This document shows, one piece after another, positions 8,444-17,142 of a stretch of DNA of 32,000 nt; position 1 is the stretch's first letter, and every line of letters starts with the position of its first letter. The stretch lies in NCBI RefSeq assembly GCF_003044035.1, contig NZ_NVQC01000022.1, positions 30,001-62,000 of the forward strand, read 5' to 3'. The notes beneath the pieces were generated by a model, which searched no databases, was not told where the DNA came from, and saw only the letters and a program-made list of their open reading frames with translations. The translations under genes and the position numbers were made by a program. The DNA is from Candidatus Methylomirabilis limnetica. Lineage in GTDB: Bacteria > Methylomirabilota > Methylomirabilia > Methylomirabilales > Methylomirabilaceae.

Positions 8444-9037
<594 letters not shown>

Positions 9038-9087
9038 TTATTCGACAAACGCTGCCTAGAATGATTTGCGAAGTTCCCACAGCATCT

Positions 9088-9120
9088 CCTTTTCGAACCT
9101 CTCTGAGTCCGATTAAAAGG
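9088..9120 (-). promoter_or_regulatory. PyrR-binding-loop-like RNA hairpin in the pyr leader
   Basis: The minus-strand RNA reads CCUUUUAAUCGGACUCAGAGAGGUUCGAAAAGG. An outer stem CCUUUU/AAAAGG encloses CUCAGAGAGGUU. This resembles the conserved UCCAGAGAGG core of Bacillus-type PyrR binding loops (recalled from memory). It lies between the candidate promoter and the terminator. Confidence 0.55.
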
Positions 9121-9127
9121 CCAGTTC

Positions 9128-9155
9128 ACTGTACCAAAACGCGGCTGACAGTCAA
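9128..9155 (-). promoter_or_regulatory. Candidate sigma70-type promoter of the pyr operon
   Basis: The minus strand reads TTGACT (9155-9150), a 16-nt spacer, then TACAGT (9133-9128). This places the TSS just upstream of the PyrR-loop hairpin. Confidence 0.45.
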
Positions 9156-9210
9156 GCCAAATCCTCACACGTCCAACTCATGGCTCATCTTCTTCCCTGC
9201 CGCTCTCCTC

Positions 9211-9504
9211 CTATACCGTAGGCGGCCCGGTCCGTCGCGCTTCAATCAATTCGCGGACAGCCGGAACCAGGTAGACTGTGGAAAGGTCGAACCGTGACAG
9301 GCAATCGGCCAGGACCCGTATTCGATCGCCCGGAGTAAGGCGATCATCGACGATCGCCACGAGTTGTCCTCGCAGCGTGCAGGTCCCGCTCTTCACGACA
9401 AATTCCTGCTGATCCAAGCTCTCGTAGAGGACCTTGACACCAAGCCGCTCTGCTAGCTCTTCGAACTGTTGCAGGAGTATAGCTTCGATCATCGCGCTCA
9501 CCAA
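9211..9504 (-). CDS. Hypothetical small protein (about 92-97 aa)
   Basis: ORF with coding-like composition and no competing ORF. No motif recognised. Start is uncertain (M1 or MIEAILL). Confidence 0.45.
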   Translation of the reverse strand: MVSAMIEAILLQQFEELAERLGVKVLYESLDQQEFVVKSGTCTLRGQLVAIVDDRLTPGDRIRVLADCLSRFDLSTVYLVPAVRELIEARRTGPPTV

Positions 9505-9573
9505 CGTGGGTGACCATCATCTGCAGAAGCCACCCTACAGAAGAAGCGCGCAAATGTCAAGGTGACGGCCAGA

Positions 9574-9715
9574 CCCAAGAACAGCGATAGGCTTCGCAAC
9601 TACTCGATTCTTCCCGTCGTTGCGAGTACCCGTAGGGTGCGTGGCAATCTCAGTGCAATAATGCGAGATTGCTTCACTTCGTTCGCAATGACAACTTTCT
9701 ATCGCTGTTCTTGGG
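9574..9715. mobile_element. 142-bp MITE-like palindromic element with 17-bp perfect TIRs and a CCAGA flanking direct repeat
   Basis: The TIRs are CCCAAGAACAGCGATAG (9574-9590) and CTATCGCTGTTCTTGGG (9699-9715). Internal arms are GTCGTTGCGAG...GGCAATCTC and GAGATTGC...CGCAATGAC. It is flanked by CCAGA at 9569-9573 and 9716-9720. It is non-coding. Confidence 0.75.
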
Positions 9716-9727
9716 CCAGAGTGCCAG

Positions 9728-9780
9728 GAAACAGAAGAAAACCGCTGCGGGACTCACCGGACGGTCAGTCCCGCAGCGGT
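9728..9780 (-). terminator. Rho-independent terminator of the 9816..10073 gene
   Basis: Perfect 14-bp stem ACCGCTGCGGGACT / AGTCCCGCAGCGGT (9741-9754 / 9767-9780) with a 12-nt loop. On the minus strand it is followed by UUUUCUUCUGUUUC. It lies 36 nt after the stop codon. Confidence 0.75.
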
Positions 9781-9815
9781 CGGAGGGAGGGGAGGTCACG
9801 CAGAGCAGGAAGCGT

Positions 9816-10073
9816 TTACCGCCAGTGGCCAGGAACCCAGGCACCCCATCGGTTGACGTGTCCAGGAACCCGGACAGGCCGATAATAGACAGGCGCAGGT
9901 CGCATGCGCCACCCTGGAGCCGGTGCCACAACAGGAGCCCGGGCGACGACCACGGGGAATGGGACCCCGACGTTGATTCCGACCCTAACCCATGCCAGAG
10001 CCGGCTGAGTTGCAGCAACCAATCCACCGATAACGAGCGCCATGACGACCAGTTTCGACAGATACTGCTTCAT
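9816..10073 (-). CDS. Small secreted protein (signal peptide; Pro/Val/Trp-rich, GHW repeats)
   Basis: MKQYLSKLVVMALVIGGLVAATQPALA is a typical Sec signal peptide with an AxA site. The mature part contains PGHVNRWGAWVPGHW. The terminator directly downstream supports expression. Confidence 0.6.
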   Translation of the reverse strand: MKQYLSKLVVMALVIGGLVAATQPALAWVRVGINVGVPFPVVVARAPVVAPAPGWRMRPAPVYYRPVRVPGHVNRWGAWVPGHWR

Positions 10074-10219: not shown

Positions 10220-12609
<2,390 letters not shown>

Positions 12610-12715: not shown

Positions 12716-15547
12716 ATGAGCCAAGTCGTCATCGAAAACCCGATCATCAACTCGCCGTTCGACGAGCCGACCCGTCATTTTCGATTTAGCGACGAGGGCA
12801 TCACCAGCGAGATTGTTGACGGCCGCCGGACCAGTTCCTATTTCGTCCCCATCGCCAAGCCGAAGAAGAAGGGTGCCAAGCAGCTTCAATTCGCAACGGA
12901 ATGGACACAAGACCGCATCGAGGAGAACCAGCTCGTCAACGATGTCCGACGCCGCGTCGCCATGTGGCGCAAGGGCGGCTACCTGGGCGTGACACATACC
13001 ACCACGCGATTGATTGCCTACTGGACCGATCCCAATCGCGAGAAGAAACTCTTCTTCTGCCAGAACGAGGCCCTTGAAACCGCCATCTACATTACCGAGG
13101 TGGCAAAGAAATACGGCGATGCCTGGATAGAGAACGCGATACGAGAGGCGAACGACACATCGAACCCCGGCCTGCCGCGCGCAGCATTCAAGATGGCCAC
13201 TGGCGCCGGCAAGACCGTCGTCATGGCCATGCTCATCGCCTGGCACACGCTCAACAAGCGCGCCAACCCCCAGGACGCCCGCTTCTCCGACACCTTCCTG
13301 ATCGTCACCCCCGGCATCACCATCCGCGACCGGCTCCGCGTGCTGTTGCCGAACGACCCGGAGAACTACTACCGCCAGCGTGACATTGTACCGGCCCAAC
13401 TACAGGACCAGCTCGGACAGGCCAAAATCGTCATCACCAACTACCACGCCTTCGGACTGCGCGAGAGGGTCGCCGCCGGCAAGATCACGAAGTCGATTCT
13501 CGCCGATGGGCAGCCAAGCCCGTTTACCGAAACTCCCGACCAGATGGTGCGCCGCGTCTGTCGCGAATTGAGCACCAAGAAACACATCATCGTCCTCAAC
13601 GACGAAGCCCATCACTGCTACCGCCGCAAACCCGACGGCGAAGAGGAAAAACTCACCGGCGATGATCGCGTCGAAGCCAAGCAACGCGACGAAGAGGCTC
13701 GCGTATGGATTTCCGGCATCGAGGCCGTGAAGGCCAAGATCGGCGTGAAGGCCATCTACGACCTTTCGGCCACACCGTTCTTTCTGCGCGGTTCGGGTTA
13801 CAGCAAAATTACGCACGATGGTAAGAAAATCACCGAGGGGCTTCTTTTTCCGTGGGTAGTTTCTGACTTCTCTCTCATCGACGCCATCGAGGCCGGCATC
13901 GTCAAAGTGCCCCGTGTGCCGGTGGCTGATGACTCAATGATAGGCGAGCAGCCCACCTACCGCGACCTGTGGCTCCGCATCCGCGAGCACCTATCAAAAA
14001 AGGGTCGCAAAACCGATAAGGTGGTGGGCGAACCGAAGATCCCCCTCGAACTTCATGGAGCACTTCTCAGCCTCTACGGCAACTACAAGAAGTATCACCG
14101 CCTGTGGGAGCAGAACGCCGAGGCCCGCGCCCGTGGCATCACGCCGCCGGTGTTCATCGTCGTCTGCAACAACACCAACGTGTCCAAACGCGTCTTCGAC
14201 TTCATTGCCGGATGGGAAAAGCAGATCGGCGACCAGATCGTCGCCCAGGCCGGGCAGTTGTCCATCTTTCGCAACGACGACGGTAAGGGTGGCTGGCTGC
14301 ACCGCCCGAACACCATCCTGGTGGACAGCCAGCAGCTCGAGTCCGGCGGAGCGATGAGCGACGACTTCAAGAAGATCGCCGCCCGAGAAATCGACGAGTT
14401 CAAGGCCGACTACCGAGCCCGCTTTCCCGGCCGCGATGCCGAATCCCTGACCGACGAAGACCTCCTCCGCGAAGTGATGAACACGGTCGGTAAGGCAGGC
14501 AAACTCGGCGAACACGTCAAGTGCGTCGTCAGCGTCTCCATGCTCACGGAAGGGTGGGATGCCAACACCGTCACCCACGTTCTCGGCGTGCGCGCCTTCG
14601 GCACGCAACTGCTGTGCGAGCAGGTGGTCGGTCGCGCCCTGCGCCGCATAAGTTACGCCGCCAACGAGAAGGGGCATTTCAATCCCGAATACGCTGAAGT
14701 CTACGGCGTGCCCTTTTCCTTCATCCCGTGCAGCGGGGCAACTAAAGACCCCAAGCCCGGCCCGCTGCCCACCCGCGTTCGCGCCATCGAGCGCCGCATC
14801 GCCTGCGAGATCACCTTTCCACGGCTGCTCGGCTACCGCTACGACGTGGCTGGCGAGCGGCTCACCGCAACCTTCACAGCAGAATCGCACCTGGCACTCT
14901 CGACTGCCGACATTCCCACCAAGACCGAGAACGCGCCCATCGTCGGCGAATCCAGCATCCACACCCTCGACGATCTCAAACGCCACCGGCTCAACGAGGT
15001 CGCCTTCCTGCTGGCCAAGCTGACGCTGGAAAAATACTTCCGCGACGATGACGGCAACGATAAACCCTGGCTCTTCCCGCAACTGCTCGGCATCGCCAAA
15101 CGCTGGCTGGCCGAATGCGTCACGCTCAAGGACAACACCTTCCCGCAACTGCTGCTCTTGATCGAGTTAGCACACGACGCCGCCGACCGCATCTACAAGG
15201 CGATCGTCGCCTCGACGGACGGCACGGAGGGCGACCACAAGGGTGCGCCCCTACGGCCGATCCTGCGCCCGCATGATACGATCGGCTCCACCTGTGATGT
15301 GGATTTCGATACTAGCCGAGCCGTATTCGCCACCAGCAGCGACAAGTGCCACATCTCCCATGTGGTGGCCGATACCGATTCATGGGAGCAGAAGATGGCC
15401 GAAGCCCTCGAAGACTCGCCCGAGGTCATCCGCTACGTCAAAAACCACAACCTCGGCTTCACCATCCCCTTACACGCTGAACGGCGAAGAACACCAATAC
15501 ATCCCCGACTTCATCGCCTGCATCGACGACGGCCACGGCCCGAGTGA
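12716..15547 (+). CDS. Type III-like restriction enzyme Res subunit (SF2 helicase part intact; reading frame leaves the nuclease domain at about 15466-15471)
   Basis: N-terminus MSQVVIENPIINSPFDEPTRHFRF. Helicase motifs present: MATGAGKT (I), LNDEAHH (II, DEAH), SATP (III), MLTEGWDANTVTHVLGVRAFGTQLLCEQVVGRALRR (V-VI). The last 26 residues (LHAERRRTPIHPRLHRLHRRRPRPE) are Arg/His-rich out-of-frame junk. Confidence 0.85.
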   Translation: MSQVVIENPIINSPFDEPTRHFRFSDEGITSEIVDGRRTSSYFVPIAKPKKKGAKQLQFATEWTQDRIEENQLVNDVRRRVAMWRKGGYLGVTHTTTRLIAYWTDPNREKKLFFCQNEALETAIYITEVAKKYGDAWIENAIREANDTSNPGLPRAAFKMATGAGKTVVMAMLIAWHTLNKRANPQDARFSDTFLIVTPGITIRDRLRVLLPNDPENYYRQRDIVPAQLQDQLGQAKIVITNYHAFGLRERVAAGKITKSILADGQPSPFTETPDQMVRRVCRELSTKKHIIVLNDEAHHCYRRKPDGEEEKLTGDDRVEAKQRDEEARVWISGIEAVKAKIGVKAIYDLSATPFFLRGSGYSKITHDGKKITEGLLFPWVVSDFSLIDAIEAGIVKVPRVPVADDSMIGEQPTYRDLWLRIREHLSKKGRKTDKVVGEPKIPLELHGALLSLYGNYKKYHRLWEQNAEARARGITPPVFIVVCNNTNVSKRVFDFIAGWEKQIGDQIVAQAGQLSIFRNDDGKGGWLHRPNTILVDSQQLESGGAMSDDFKKIAAREIDEFKADYRARFPGRDAESLTDEDLLREVMNTVGKAGKLGEHVKCVVSVSMLTEGWDANTVTHVLGVRAFGTQLLCEQVVGRALRRISYAANEKGHFNPEYAEVYGVPFSFIPCSGATKDPKPGPLPTRVRAIERRIACEITFPRLLGYRYDVAGERLTATFTAESHLALSTADIPTKTENAPIVGESSIHTLDDLKRHRLNEVAFLLAKLTLEKYFRDDDGNDKPWLFPQLLGIAKRWLAECVTLKDNTFPQLLLLIELAHDAADRIYKAIVASTDGTEGDHKGAPLRPILRPHDTIGSTCDVDFDTSRAVFATSSDKCHISHVVADTDSWEQKMAEALEDSPEVIRYVKNHNLGFTIPLHAERRRTPIHPRLHRLHRRRPRPE

Positions 15548-15746
15548 CCTCTTGAACCTGATCGTCGAAGTCACCGGCGAGAAGAAGAAGAACAAGGCCG
15601 CCAAGGTCTCTACTGCGCGCTCCCTGTGGGTGCCGGCCATCAACAACCACGGCGGCTTCGGACGCTGGACTTTCATTGAGATCAGTGACCCGTGGGACGC
15701 GAAGAACCTGATCCGCGCCAGCCTAAAGAAAGGAGCAAAACCGTGA
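15468..15746 (+). pseudogene. Displaced C-terminal PD-(D/E)xK nuclease segment of the Res gene, in the +1 frame
   Basis: The frame of ORF 15243..15746 reads PYTLNGEEHQYIPDFIACIDDGHGPSDLLNLIVEVTGEKKKNKAAKVSTARSLWVPAINNHGGFGRWTFIEISDPWD. It joins seamlessly to ...NHNLGFTIP of the main frame if one nucleotide of the CCCC/TT run at 15466-15471 is removed. It contains a PD...EVxGEK nuclease-like motif. Confidence 0.75.
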
Positions 15747-16600
15747 GTGAAGAATTGCCAGCCGATTCCCAGGGCAAGATGATCGTATTCGGGGCGAAGC
15801 AGATTCGCCGTATTTGGCACGATGACCAGTGGTTCTTCTCCGTTGTGGACATCATCGGCGCCCTCACCGACAGCGAGAATCCACGCGATTACTGGTATCG
15901 CATGAAGCAGCGGGAGAAGGAATCTAGCGGAATCGAGTTGTCGACACTTTGTCGACAACTGAAACTAGTCTCATCTGACGGCAAGGCTTACCCCACGGAA
16001 GCCGCGTCCACCGAAGCCGCCTTTCGCATCATCCAGTCGATCCCCAGCCCCAAGGCCGAACCGTTCAAACGCTGGCTGGCTGAGGTGGGTTACCAGCGCG
16101 TCCAGGAGATCGAAAACCCCGAACTTGCCCAGCAGCGGATGCGGAAACTCTATCAGGACAAAGGCTACCCCGACGATTGGGTCGAAAAGCGCGTCCGTGG
16201 CATTGCCGTCCGTGACGAACTGACCAGCGAATGGCAGAAACGCGGTATTCAGGATCAAAAAGACTTCGCCATACTTACCGGCGAAATTTCCAAAGCCACA
16301 TTTGGCTTGACTCCTGCCGACTACAAGAAGCTGAAGGGCCTGAAGCGTGAAAATCTCCGCGATCACATGACCGACCTCGAGTTGATCTTCACCATGCTCG
16401 GCGAGGCCGCAACCACAGAAATCGCGCGCAACAAAAACGCCCAGGGCCTCCTAAAAAACAAACTGGCTGCCAAAGCAGGCGGCTCGGTTGCGGGCAATGC
16501 CCGTCGCCAGCTTGAAGCCAAGTCGGGCCGCAAGGTCATCACCCGCGACAATTACCTGATCGACAAACCCAAGCGCAAGCTTCCACCGAAGTCGGAGTAA
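15743..16600 (+). CDS. Bro-N domain / DinD-like (DNA-damage-inducible protein D family) protein
   Basis: The N-terminus FGAKQIRRIWHDDQWFFSVVDIIGALTDSENPRDYW is Bro-N-like. The C-terminal half (RDELTSEWQKRG...DFAILT...KGLKRENLRDHMTDLELIF...) resembles E. coli DinD as I recall it. GTG 15743 is preceded by AAAGGAG and overlaps the stop of the displaced Res frame (GTGA). ATG 15779 is the alternative start. Confidence 0.75.
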   Translation: MSEELPADSQGKMIVFGAKQIRRIWHDDQWFFSVVDIIGALTDSENPRDYWYRMKQREKESSGIELSTLCRQLKLVSSDGKAYPTEAASTEAAFRIIQSIPSPKAEPFKRWLAEVGYQRVQEIENPELAQQRMRKLYQDKGYPDDWVEKRVRGIAVRDELTSEWQKRGIQDQKDFAILTGEISKATFGLTPADYKKLKGLKRENLRDHMTDLELIFTMLGEAATTEIARNKNAQGLLKNKLAAKAGGSVAGNARRQLEAKSGRKVITRDNYLIDKPKRKLPPKSE

Positions 16601-16606
16601 CATTCC

Positions 16607-17011
16607 ATGGTCAAAAAGAAGACCACGCCGACGAAAGTCGAATCCATTCGCCATAAGGACAAGCGCGCGAACATCCCCACCGAGGAGCTGCGCGACTTCG
16701 ATGTGTACGATCCGACCACAGGACAGATACGAAACTCCTCCACCGACGATATCGCGTGCTGGTTTATCGACACCGACTACAACGGCGAGAGCTTCTTTGT
16801 CCGCCACGCCTACTTCACCGGGGCTGCACAAGACGGTGAGGGTCCTTACGATAAGCTCAAGCGGGCGCTACGGGCGGACATCGACGAAGCGGCCTGGAGC
16901 AGTCTCTACACCACCATCAGCCGGCCATTCGCCAAGCCCGAGACGGGCAAGATCGCCGTGAAGGTCATCAACCACTAAGGCGACGAGGTGCTGAAGGTGT
17001 TTCAAATATGA
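16607..17011 (+). pseudogene. Remnant of the cognate Type III-like Mod DNA methyltransferase (N-terminal about 31 aa fused to C-terminal about 100 aa; catalytic core deleted; premature TAA)
   Basis: MVKKKTTPTKVESIRHKDKRANIPTEELRDF matches the usual N-terminus of these large methylases. It is followed directly by their usual C-terminal tail: DVYDPTTGQIRNSSTDDIACWFIDTDYNGESFFVRHAYFTGA...SRPFAKPETGKIAVKVINH. No DPPY or SAM-binding motifs are present. TAA at 16976 interrupts VINH*GDEVLKVFQI*, the conserved tail continuing in-frame to 17011. Confidence 0.7.
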
Positions 17012-17080: not shown

Positions 17081-17142
17081 GTCATTCCGGGCTTGACCCG
17101 GAATCCAGTGCTGTTCTGGATTCCCGCTTTCGCGGGAATGAC
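17081..17142. repeat. Nested palindromic repeat (two ATTCC-hairpin arms in inverted orientation)
   Basis: GTCATTCCGGGCTTGACCCGGAATCCAG tgctgtt CTGGATTCCCGCTTTCGCGGGAATGAC. Each arm is itself a hairpin: ATTCCGGG/CCCGGAAT and ATTCCCGC/GCGGGAAT. Confidence 0.8.

Follow-up and report, generated by a model that had tools for sequence, protein, structure and literature searches.

A 32,000-nucleotide stretch of the Candidatus Methylomirabilis limnetica genome (contig NZ_NVQC01000022.1, positions 30,001 to 62,000; hereafter the window, numbered from its first nucleotide) carries on its forward strand a short open reading frame (ORF), mini-mod, that joins the two ends of a Type III-like DNA methyltransferase subunit, Mod, and lacks everything between them. 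The question raised by this locus is whether such a remnant is a snapshot of restriction-modification (R-M) decay or a small protein retained in its own right. The original prediction had left both options standing. Retention is favoured by a deletion junction shared with relatives, intact 130-residue ORFs in those relatives, ratios of nonsynonymous to synonymous divergence (dN/dS) of 0.13-0.17 and independent fusions elsewhere, while decay does hold for the window strain itself, where a TAA stop and a frameshift in the neighbouring res gene are both recent. We consider it probable, though well short of certain, that mini-mod stems from an old deletion of the mod core, was long retained as a working small protein, likely as a binding partner, and is now failing in the window strain. 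The evidence for both retention and role is purely comparative.

Descent of mini-mod from a Type III-like mod gene

The mini-mod ORF (16607..16978, forward strand) starts with an ATG at 16607 and ends after 123 codons at a premature TAA (16976-16978), compared to 130 residues in its relatives. A tblastn search of the window with an intact 882-residue Mod (P0121) returned two matches only: residues 1-31 align to 16607-16699 with 87% identity, and residues 766-882 align to 16637-17008 with 73% identity. The N-terminal arm of mini-mod (N-arm; 16607..16699, forward strand) is the equivalent of Mod residues 1-31 and contains the near-invariant HKDKRANIPTEELRDF motif, which is at least 90% conserved across 114 full-length Mods. 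It is followed at 16700..16975 (forward strand) by the C-terminal module of Mod (C-module), of which 92 of approximately 99 residues are left. PADLOC places residues 30-130 of an intact relative (P0003) at positions 883-983 of the 983 positions of the MTase_III model PDLC03632 (E=2e-42). Both of the segments kept in mini-mod are homologous to the N- and C-termini of the Mod family.

A sister lineage (L100/L101), whose ligA falls in the same 90% cluster as that of the window, carries an intact Type III-like system at the corresponding chromosomal position. The order at L100 is ligA, a 487-aa gene, higB, higA, Res (1005 aa), a 277-aa gene, DUF5131 and a Mod of 875 aa that includes the methyltransferase (MTase) domain; the 3' end of this mod is 92% identical at the DNA level to the 3' part of mini-mod. 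Relative to L100, exactly 745 codons (2,235 bp) are gone between ...EELRDF and DVYDP..., leaving the junction TTC/GAT (..RDF/DVY..) at 16697..16702 (forward strand). Measured against other intact homologues, with members of approximately 870-890 aa, the deletion spans 723-760 codons. Hence, the proposed in-frame reduction of Mod to an N-terminus/C-terminus mini-gene is confirmed by the tblastn and PADLOC matches and by the intact system of L100/L101. The missing middle does include the MTase core, as had been suggested, but its size is 745 codons when measured against the syntenic L100 and not roughly 900 residues. Microhomology at the junction is limited to an overlap of 1 nt, and a nearby 5-nt CGTGG repeat was rejected as the breakpoint, as its use would yield DFVDVY, unlike the junction observed. 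The junction DNA is identical in all six aligned sequences (the window, L001 and L004-L007).

The catalytic MTase domain expected of a Type III Mod methyltransferase (PF01555, N6_N4_Mtase; about residues 153-489 of intact members), with its DPPY and S-adenosylmethionine-binding motifs, falls inside the deleted 745 codons, and the target recognition domain (TRD), corresponding to a variable region at about residues 261-430 of intact Mods (39% mean identity), is wholly deleted. The 123-aa product has no match in Pfam or NCBIfam, and therefore no MTase domain is left; a search of the mini-protein sequence against the PDB gave no match at E up to 1. By its sequence the locus evidently descends from a Type III-like Mod while having neither of the features that define the family, MTase domain or TRD. 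Its product is predicted to be unable to bind S-adenosylmethionine, recognise a target or methylate a specific motif (m6A or m4C).

The translation start survived the deletion, as had been noted: a GGAG ribosome-binding site (16594..16597, forward strand) lies 9 nt 5' of the mini-mod ATG, within the 3' end of an upstream Bro-N gene. The Bro-N stop is separated from the mini-mod start by 6 nt in the window, and the spacing is equal in L001-L007. A promoter and terminator scan around mini-mod found sites no more numerous than in shuffled sequence. Ancestrally, the locus was a Type III-like operon, inserted beside ligA-higBA, with its genes ordered res, cargo, mod. A single in-frame 745-codon deletion then took the MTase core completely, together with the TRD and the greater part of the mod C-terminal region, joining residues 1-31 to the last ~99 residues of Mod. 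After that deletion, the mini-gene remained an open ORF, translationally coupled behind the cargo gene.

Age, selection and recent loss

The window junction is shared by L001-L006, at a synonymous divergence (dS) of 0.22-0.31 to the window. These loci are arranged as ligA, a helix-turn-helix gene, Bro-N, mini-mod, a variable spot and hlyD-ABC, and encode an intact 130-aa mini-protein (P0003-P0006). Free-standing proteins of the mini-Mod architecture, of 130 aa and with the same junction, are thus conserved, an outcome that the original prediction had itself named as counter-evidence and that speaks against pure decay. Given the divergence reached by alleles with the same junction (dS ~0.22-0.31), the deletion is old and not fresh decay. 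Three-way comparison gives a star-like pattern, with dS of 0.22 between the window and L001, 0.24 between the window and L100, and 0.24 between L001 and L100. As the two mini-genes and the Mod termini of L100 all lie roughly the same distance apart, the deletion dates from near the split of the lineages.

Selection was assessed by dN/dS according to Nei-Gojobori. For mini-mod, dN/dS is 0.13-0.16 at dS 0.22-0.31 when the window is compared with L001, L004, L005 and L006, and 0.14-0.17 at dS 0.24 when either the window or L001 is compared with the Mod termini of L100. Neighbouring genes served as controls, with values of 0.14 for ligA (dS 0.36; window against L001/L004), 0.16-0.19 for hlyD (dS 0.26-0.31; window against L001/L005) and 0.24 for Bro-N (dS 0.43; window against L001/L004/L006). 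A binomial test of mini-mod against neutrality gives p ~1e-6 per pair, the pairs being non-independent, and 21 of the 26 differences between window and L001 are found at third codon positions. Changes polarised with intact outgroups amount to 12 synonymous and 8 nonsynonymous (including the stop) on the window branch, and to 4 synonymous and 2 nonsynonymous on the L001 branch. These comparisons favour purifying selection on the mini-gene after the deletion, at a housekeeping-like dN/dS, subject to the caveat of recombination discussed below.

The window allele itself carries two lesions. A lineage-specific 12-nt in-frame insertion at about 16825..16836 (forward strand) converts GADEPY to GAAQDGEGPY in a near-invariant loop, and is absent from L001-L006, L100 and every intact outgroup examined. 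Furthermore, the premature TAA (16976..16978, forward strand) replaces a Tyr codon, read correctly in the original prediction, that is TAC in relatives. This change cuts off YGDEVLKVFQI, the last predicted beta-strand, whose 11 residues reach at least 90% conservation in the family, and the window copy is left without a complete C-module. The orphaned tail GDEVLKVFQI remains in frame up to the original TGA (17009-17011), and the DNA of 16979..17011 (forward strand) is identical to that of the intact L001 allele. The stop is considered recent because these 33 nt are unchanged relative to L001. An identical mini-mod protein is found on 11 contigs, and the stop is present on all 11 and in P0002. 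The TAA is not the sole further lesion, as had been claimed, given the insertion in mini-mod itself and a frameshift in the upstream res that went unmentioned. In the window strain, the mini-mod module is now being lost.

Independent fusions and the parent res-mod family

Similar outcomes are found at other loci. Among the 120 best database matches, 16 are fusions of Mod N- and C-termini, with 10 distinct junctions, each of the 16 retaining no less than residues 1-31 and the final ~93 residues. One such pair with another junction and another context (P0027 and P0062) shows a dN/dS of 0.20 at dS 0.25 (p=3e-6), with values of 0.15 for the C-part and 0.31 for the N-part and differences that straddle the junction. 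Three further fusions (P0017, P0065 and P0071) reside in decayed loci, two with MNT/HepT cargo directly upstream and the third with a ResIII fragment. A mod pseudogene at L060 is broken into at least 4 reading frames at 49-59% identity, with residues 733-882 in one open frame at 85% identity; the corresponding regions of intact genes average 88% and 89.5%. On the basis of the independent fusions and the L060 pattern, the C-module appears to be a selectively kept unit.

The family from which these fusions derive is large, with more than 8,000 full-length matches to Mod at 75-84% identity. A scan of species-representative genomes for the C-module yielded 80 retained loci (L008-L087) from many phyla, of which approximately 50 display the order res, optional cargo and a mod of ~870-890 aa. 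Intact Mods have the N6_N4_Mtase domain at about residues 160-490, followed by an unannotated C-terminal region of ~390 aa, and their nearest solved relatives are Type III Mods, e.g. EcoP15I 4zcf, and 6k0w. The C-module is 85-91% identical across phyla, with a mean of 89.5% among intact Mods. Many intact systems have no cargo gene; Bro-N cargo is seen at L008, L039, L043, L046, L068 and L082.

The system as a whole is unusually conserved across phyla in L008-L087, with amino acid identities of 65-88% for Res, ~75-84% for Mod and 85-91% for the C-module, implying frequent recent horizontal transfer of the R-M element. Frameshifts, 5' deletions and ORFs that fuse res to mod are also seen elsewhere in the family. 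At L033 (9410-10342), a deletion fuses res residues 4-56 to the Mod C-terminal part in a single ORF, and at L037 (7487-10345) res residues 72-614 are in frame with Mod residues 502-882, giving a 952-aa ORF. At L068 (~8600-10000), the variable loop of mod is interrupted directly 5' of the C-module by an inserted gene whose product looks like a four-helix bundle; judged by eye from its translation, it is similar to a 23S rRNA intervening-sequence protein. A divergent C-module in tandem duplicate forms one ORF in P0009 (189 aa), on a 655-nt contig too short for context. Proteins with the C-module in an N-terminal or internal position were discarded as read-through fusions to downstream defence genes, uninformative on function.

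Role of the mini-protein

We infer that mini-mod encodes a small protein that is functional, or was so until recently, with the conserved C-module as its active part. By analogy, it is most likely a protein-protein adaptor rather than an enzyme. It would bind Res or Mod subunits of this very widespread family, or the cargo protein, and the N-arm would supply at least the promoter, ribosome-binding site and start codon, and possibly also a partner-binding peptide; its importance may lie mainly in these expression signals. In the EcoP15I Mod, the N-terminal domain (NTD) and the MTase domain mediate dimerisation, while the C-terminal domain (CTD) of ModA makes extensive contacts to Res (PMC4490356). 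The suggestion in the original prediction that the C-module is the Res-interaction or oligomerisation part fits this arrangement. The intact family and EcoP15I Mod (4ZCF) are both beta-class N6/N4 MTases and match in sequence, and an AlphaFold2 (AF2) model of full-length Mod has 4zcf as its best fold match (E=1e-16). This model has a mean confidence (pLDDT) of 61.7 with residues 1-144 disordered, and the predicted disorder of the N-arm in the monomer is as expected for a partner-binding peptide. The EcoP15I Mod layout is NTD/MTase/TRD/CTD, and its NTD (dimerisation) and CTD (Res contact) would correspond to the types of region kept in the mini-gene. In contrast, EcoP15I Mod has 644 aa against ~875-890 aa for the intact relatives, and here mod follows res, often after intervening cargo genes. 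Sequence comparison detects no similarity between the C-module and the EcoP15I CTD, and neither MTase nor TRD is present in the mini-protein.

Several observations weigh against a retained small protein. The window allele is truncated and may already be non-functional. An AF2 model of the mini-protein (119 sequences) is poor, with a pLDDT of 52.6, and a Foldseek search with this low-confidence model gave no significant fold match (best E 0.09). The mini-gene persists in L001-L006, where res is absent, and binding of the adjacent Res alone can therefore not explain its retention. The count of ten junction classes is biased, since the query contained the N- as well as the C-terminus and a fusion must be in frame to be called as one ORF; it is no proof of an excess of in-frame events. 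Finally, recombination is heavy, and variation imported from functional full-length homologues could lower dN/dS without selection.

This last point underlies the alternative that mini-mod is a plain pseudogene relic without function, its low dN/dS being due to imported full-length mod variation or its alleles being younger than they appear, which we regard as unlikely. Recombination mosaics are evident, as the downstream ABC transporter genes have a dS of only 0.07-0.08, compared to 0.36 for ligA. A sharp breakpoint lies near 16260, inside Bro-N (15692-16600): relative to L001, the 5' half of Bro-N shows up to 21 differences per 50 nt, whereas its 3' half and the mini-gene show 0-7, except in the block with the 12-nt insertion. 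L004 contains a patch of 13 clustered differences inside the mini-gene, and two pairs show more divergence in the mini-gene than in the flank upstream of it. The stop and insertion of the window allele, next to a decaying res, likewise suit a relic. However, in those two pairs the divergent tract runs on into non-homologous downstream DNA (a hicBA-like insertion in L004/L006, a repeat element in others), as expected for ordinary inter-strain exchange at an island edge, and differences between L098 and L099 flank the junction on either side at a distance of a few nucleotides, which a full-length donor could not supply in one tract. Exchange among mini-gene alleles thus fits better than conversion from full-length donors. 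Furthermore, the mini-gene dN of 0.03-0.05 is far under the neutral level given by the flanks (dS 0.26-0.43), conversion adds differences and never removes them, and at L060 only the C-module was kept. Gene conversion from full-length donors was hence judged insufficient as the source of the low dN/dS, although it stays a live caveat.

The state of the neighbouring res bears on a further alternative. In the window, res (12716..15746, forward strand) encodes a BPTD_3080-family helicase-nuclease (NCBIfam NF046055, 1092.8 bits against a cut-off of 800), and a Res of the superfamily 2 (SF2) helicase-nuclease type is thus found upstream of mini-mod as operon partner, with an ORF of 943 codons. A +1 T frameshift at ~15470 separates the last 92 codons, which are open and conserved in another frame (15471-15746); just 3' of it lies a YIPDF...VEVTGEKKK segment that we take to resemble a PD-(D/E)xK nuclease motif. 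ORF calls of 943 aa and 64 aa also occur in L088-L090, where the DNA is identical to the window. An assembly error was rejected, as these three match the window exactly through the frameshift. Over the same region, L091 differs from the window by two single-nucleotide polymorphisms and an extra -1 frameshift at window-equivalent 15153 only. Compared to the intact L100 res, the window gene has an omega of 0.118 (ligA 0.105), and the +1 T is the only indel whose length is not a multiple of 3; a neutral 918-codon ORF would be stop-free with P <=0.02 at d >=0.05. The low omega and open frame indicate that res was selected almost until now, though the linked mod had seemingly collapsed long before. 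Possible reasons for this late constraint are a Res function beside mini-Mod, a Mod elsewhere in the genome, or a res+/mini-mod haplotype that is a later recombinant.

The first of these would correspond to a mini-protein that kept Res working or in check without methylation, or that titrated Res or Mod of incoming systems of its own family, both genes having become dispensable together here. The late selection on res, the recent lesions in both genes of the same strain and the Res-contact role of the EcoP15I CTD (PMC4490356) all point this way. We nevertheless hold this explanation to be distinctly unlikely, given that the mini-gene is constrained in L001-L006, which have no res, that the combination of res+ and mini-mod could be a fairly recent recombinant (breakpoint near 16260), and that a full-length Mod elsewhere could have served Res in trans. 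The L001 lineage shows a clean ~3 kb res deletion (window 12775-15761), which leaves the first ~19 res codons and the upstream sequence directly before Bro-N and mini-mod. In this one lineage, res was removed later while the cargo gene and mini-mod were kept.

The cargo gene of the window (Bro-N/DinD-like; 15692..16600, forward strand) is intact and has the Pfam Bro-N domain, its relatives starting at ~15746-15758. It matches the PDC-S13 candidate defence family over its length (PADLOC PDLC04920, E=1e-117; residues 28-291 against positions 5-269 of 286). Occupants of the slot between res and mod vary: Bro-N/PDC-S13 in the window (15692-16600), a 277-aa gene and DUF5131 in L100 (8438-10011), and MNT-HepT in L094 (7332-8001) and L096 (7548-8001). 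Window and L100 are homologous up to the 3' end of res and again from the 5' end of mod, which suggests cassette exchange. A mini-protein serving as partner or regulator of the preceding cargo gene, and kept because that cargo needs it, independently of Res, is in our view equally unlikely: the constant 6-nt spacing of Bro-N and mini-mod in all relatives (even where res is deleted), the mini-mod start abutting a HepT or HepT-fragment gene in L094 and L096, and the res 5' end, presumably with the operon promoter, preserved before Bro-N and mini-mod in L001 would support it, but the cargo differs between loci (Bro-N; MNT-HepT; DUF5131 with the 277-aa protein), making a specific partnership unlikely, the P0027 mini-gene has no cargo gene upstream, and many intact systems have none at all.

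Other features of the island were also recorded. At its left edge, an orphan higA antitoxin gene (12301..12609, forward strand) overlaps the ligA stop; in L100 (2764-5317), ligA and higA are separated by a 487-aa gene and higB, whereas the window higA is without higB. A palindromic repeat with two hairpins (17081-17141; DNA fold z = -4.2) is located 3' of the mini-gene, at a variable spot that has a longer version of the repeat in L001. L004 (4140-4376 onward) and L006 (1794 onward) have a hicB/hicA-like pair in place of the repeat, identified from translation only.

A functional small protein with adaptor activity can be compared to several known outcomes of R-M and toxin-antitoxin evolution. 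The mini-mod locus resembles decayed R-M loci in having lost its catalytic core beside a frameshifted res, but has kept an open frame, ribosome-binding site, translational coupling and housekeeping-like dN/dS over diverged lineages, and the outcome recurs independently elsewhere. By sequence, it is thus akin to ordinary R-M decay in its origin and appears to differ in its later evolution. Truncated or half-size HsdS proteins of Type I R-M systems are deletion derivatives that keep conserved interaction regions and still assemble and function. These retain a target recognition domain and work within an active methylase, whereas mini-Mod has neither a recognition nor a catalytic part. Orphan antitoxins are small antidote proteins kept after their toxic partner is lost. 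Mini-Mod is likewise small, and the window island itself contains higA without higB. The antidote activity of Mod is methylation, however, of which the mini-protein is predicted to be incapable, and any protection would have to be by binding.

A broader proposal, which we advance tentatively as an outside chance, is that the C-module with the N-arm is an autonomous adaptor, repeatedly kept when freed from the rest of Mod, and acting without methylation, either by holding or regulating Res or embedded defence cargo or as a dominant-negative decoy against incoming R-M systems of the same family. Literature searches on BPTD_3080, PDC-S13 and selection on truncated Mod found nothing relevant, and no description of retained Mod N-C mini-genes was found.

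Remnants of R-M systems are usually dismissed as junk, while the non-methylating remnant described here evolves in a gene-like manner over substantial divergence. Similar N-C fusions arose at least 10 times, drawing attention to a C-module of ~99 residues shared by a family with over 8,000 members. This raises the question of what the Mod C-terminus binds, and whether it acts alone. If the mini-protein does modulate Res or block related systems, this would represent a novel route for hosts to domesticate or neutralise mobile R-M elements, and annotation pipelines would be discarding functional small proteins as 'partial methyltransferases'. Should the adaptor or decoy proposal hold true, it would mean that bacteria domesticate pieces of selfish R-M systems, turning them into small proteins with regulatory or immunity functions.

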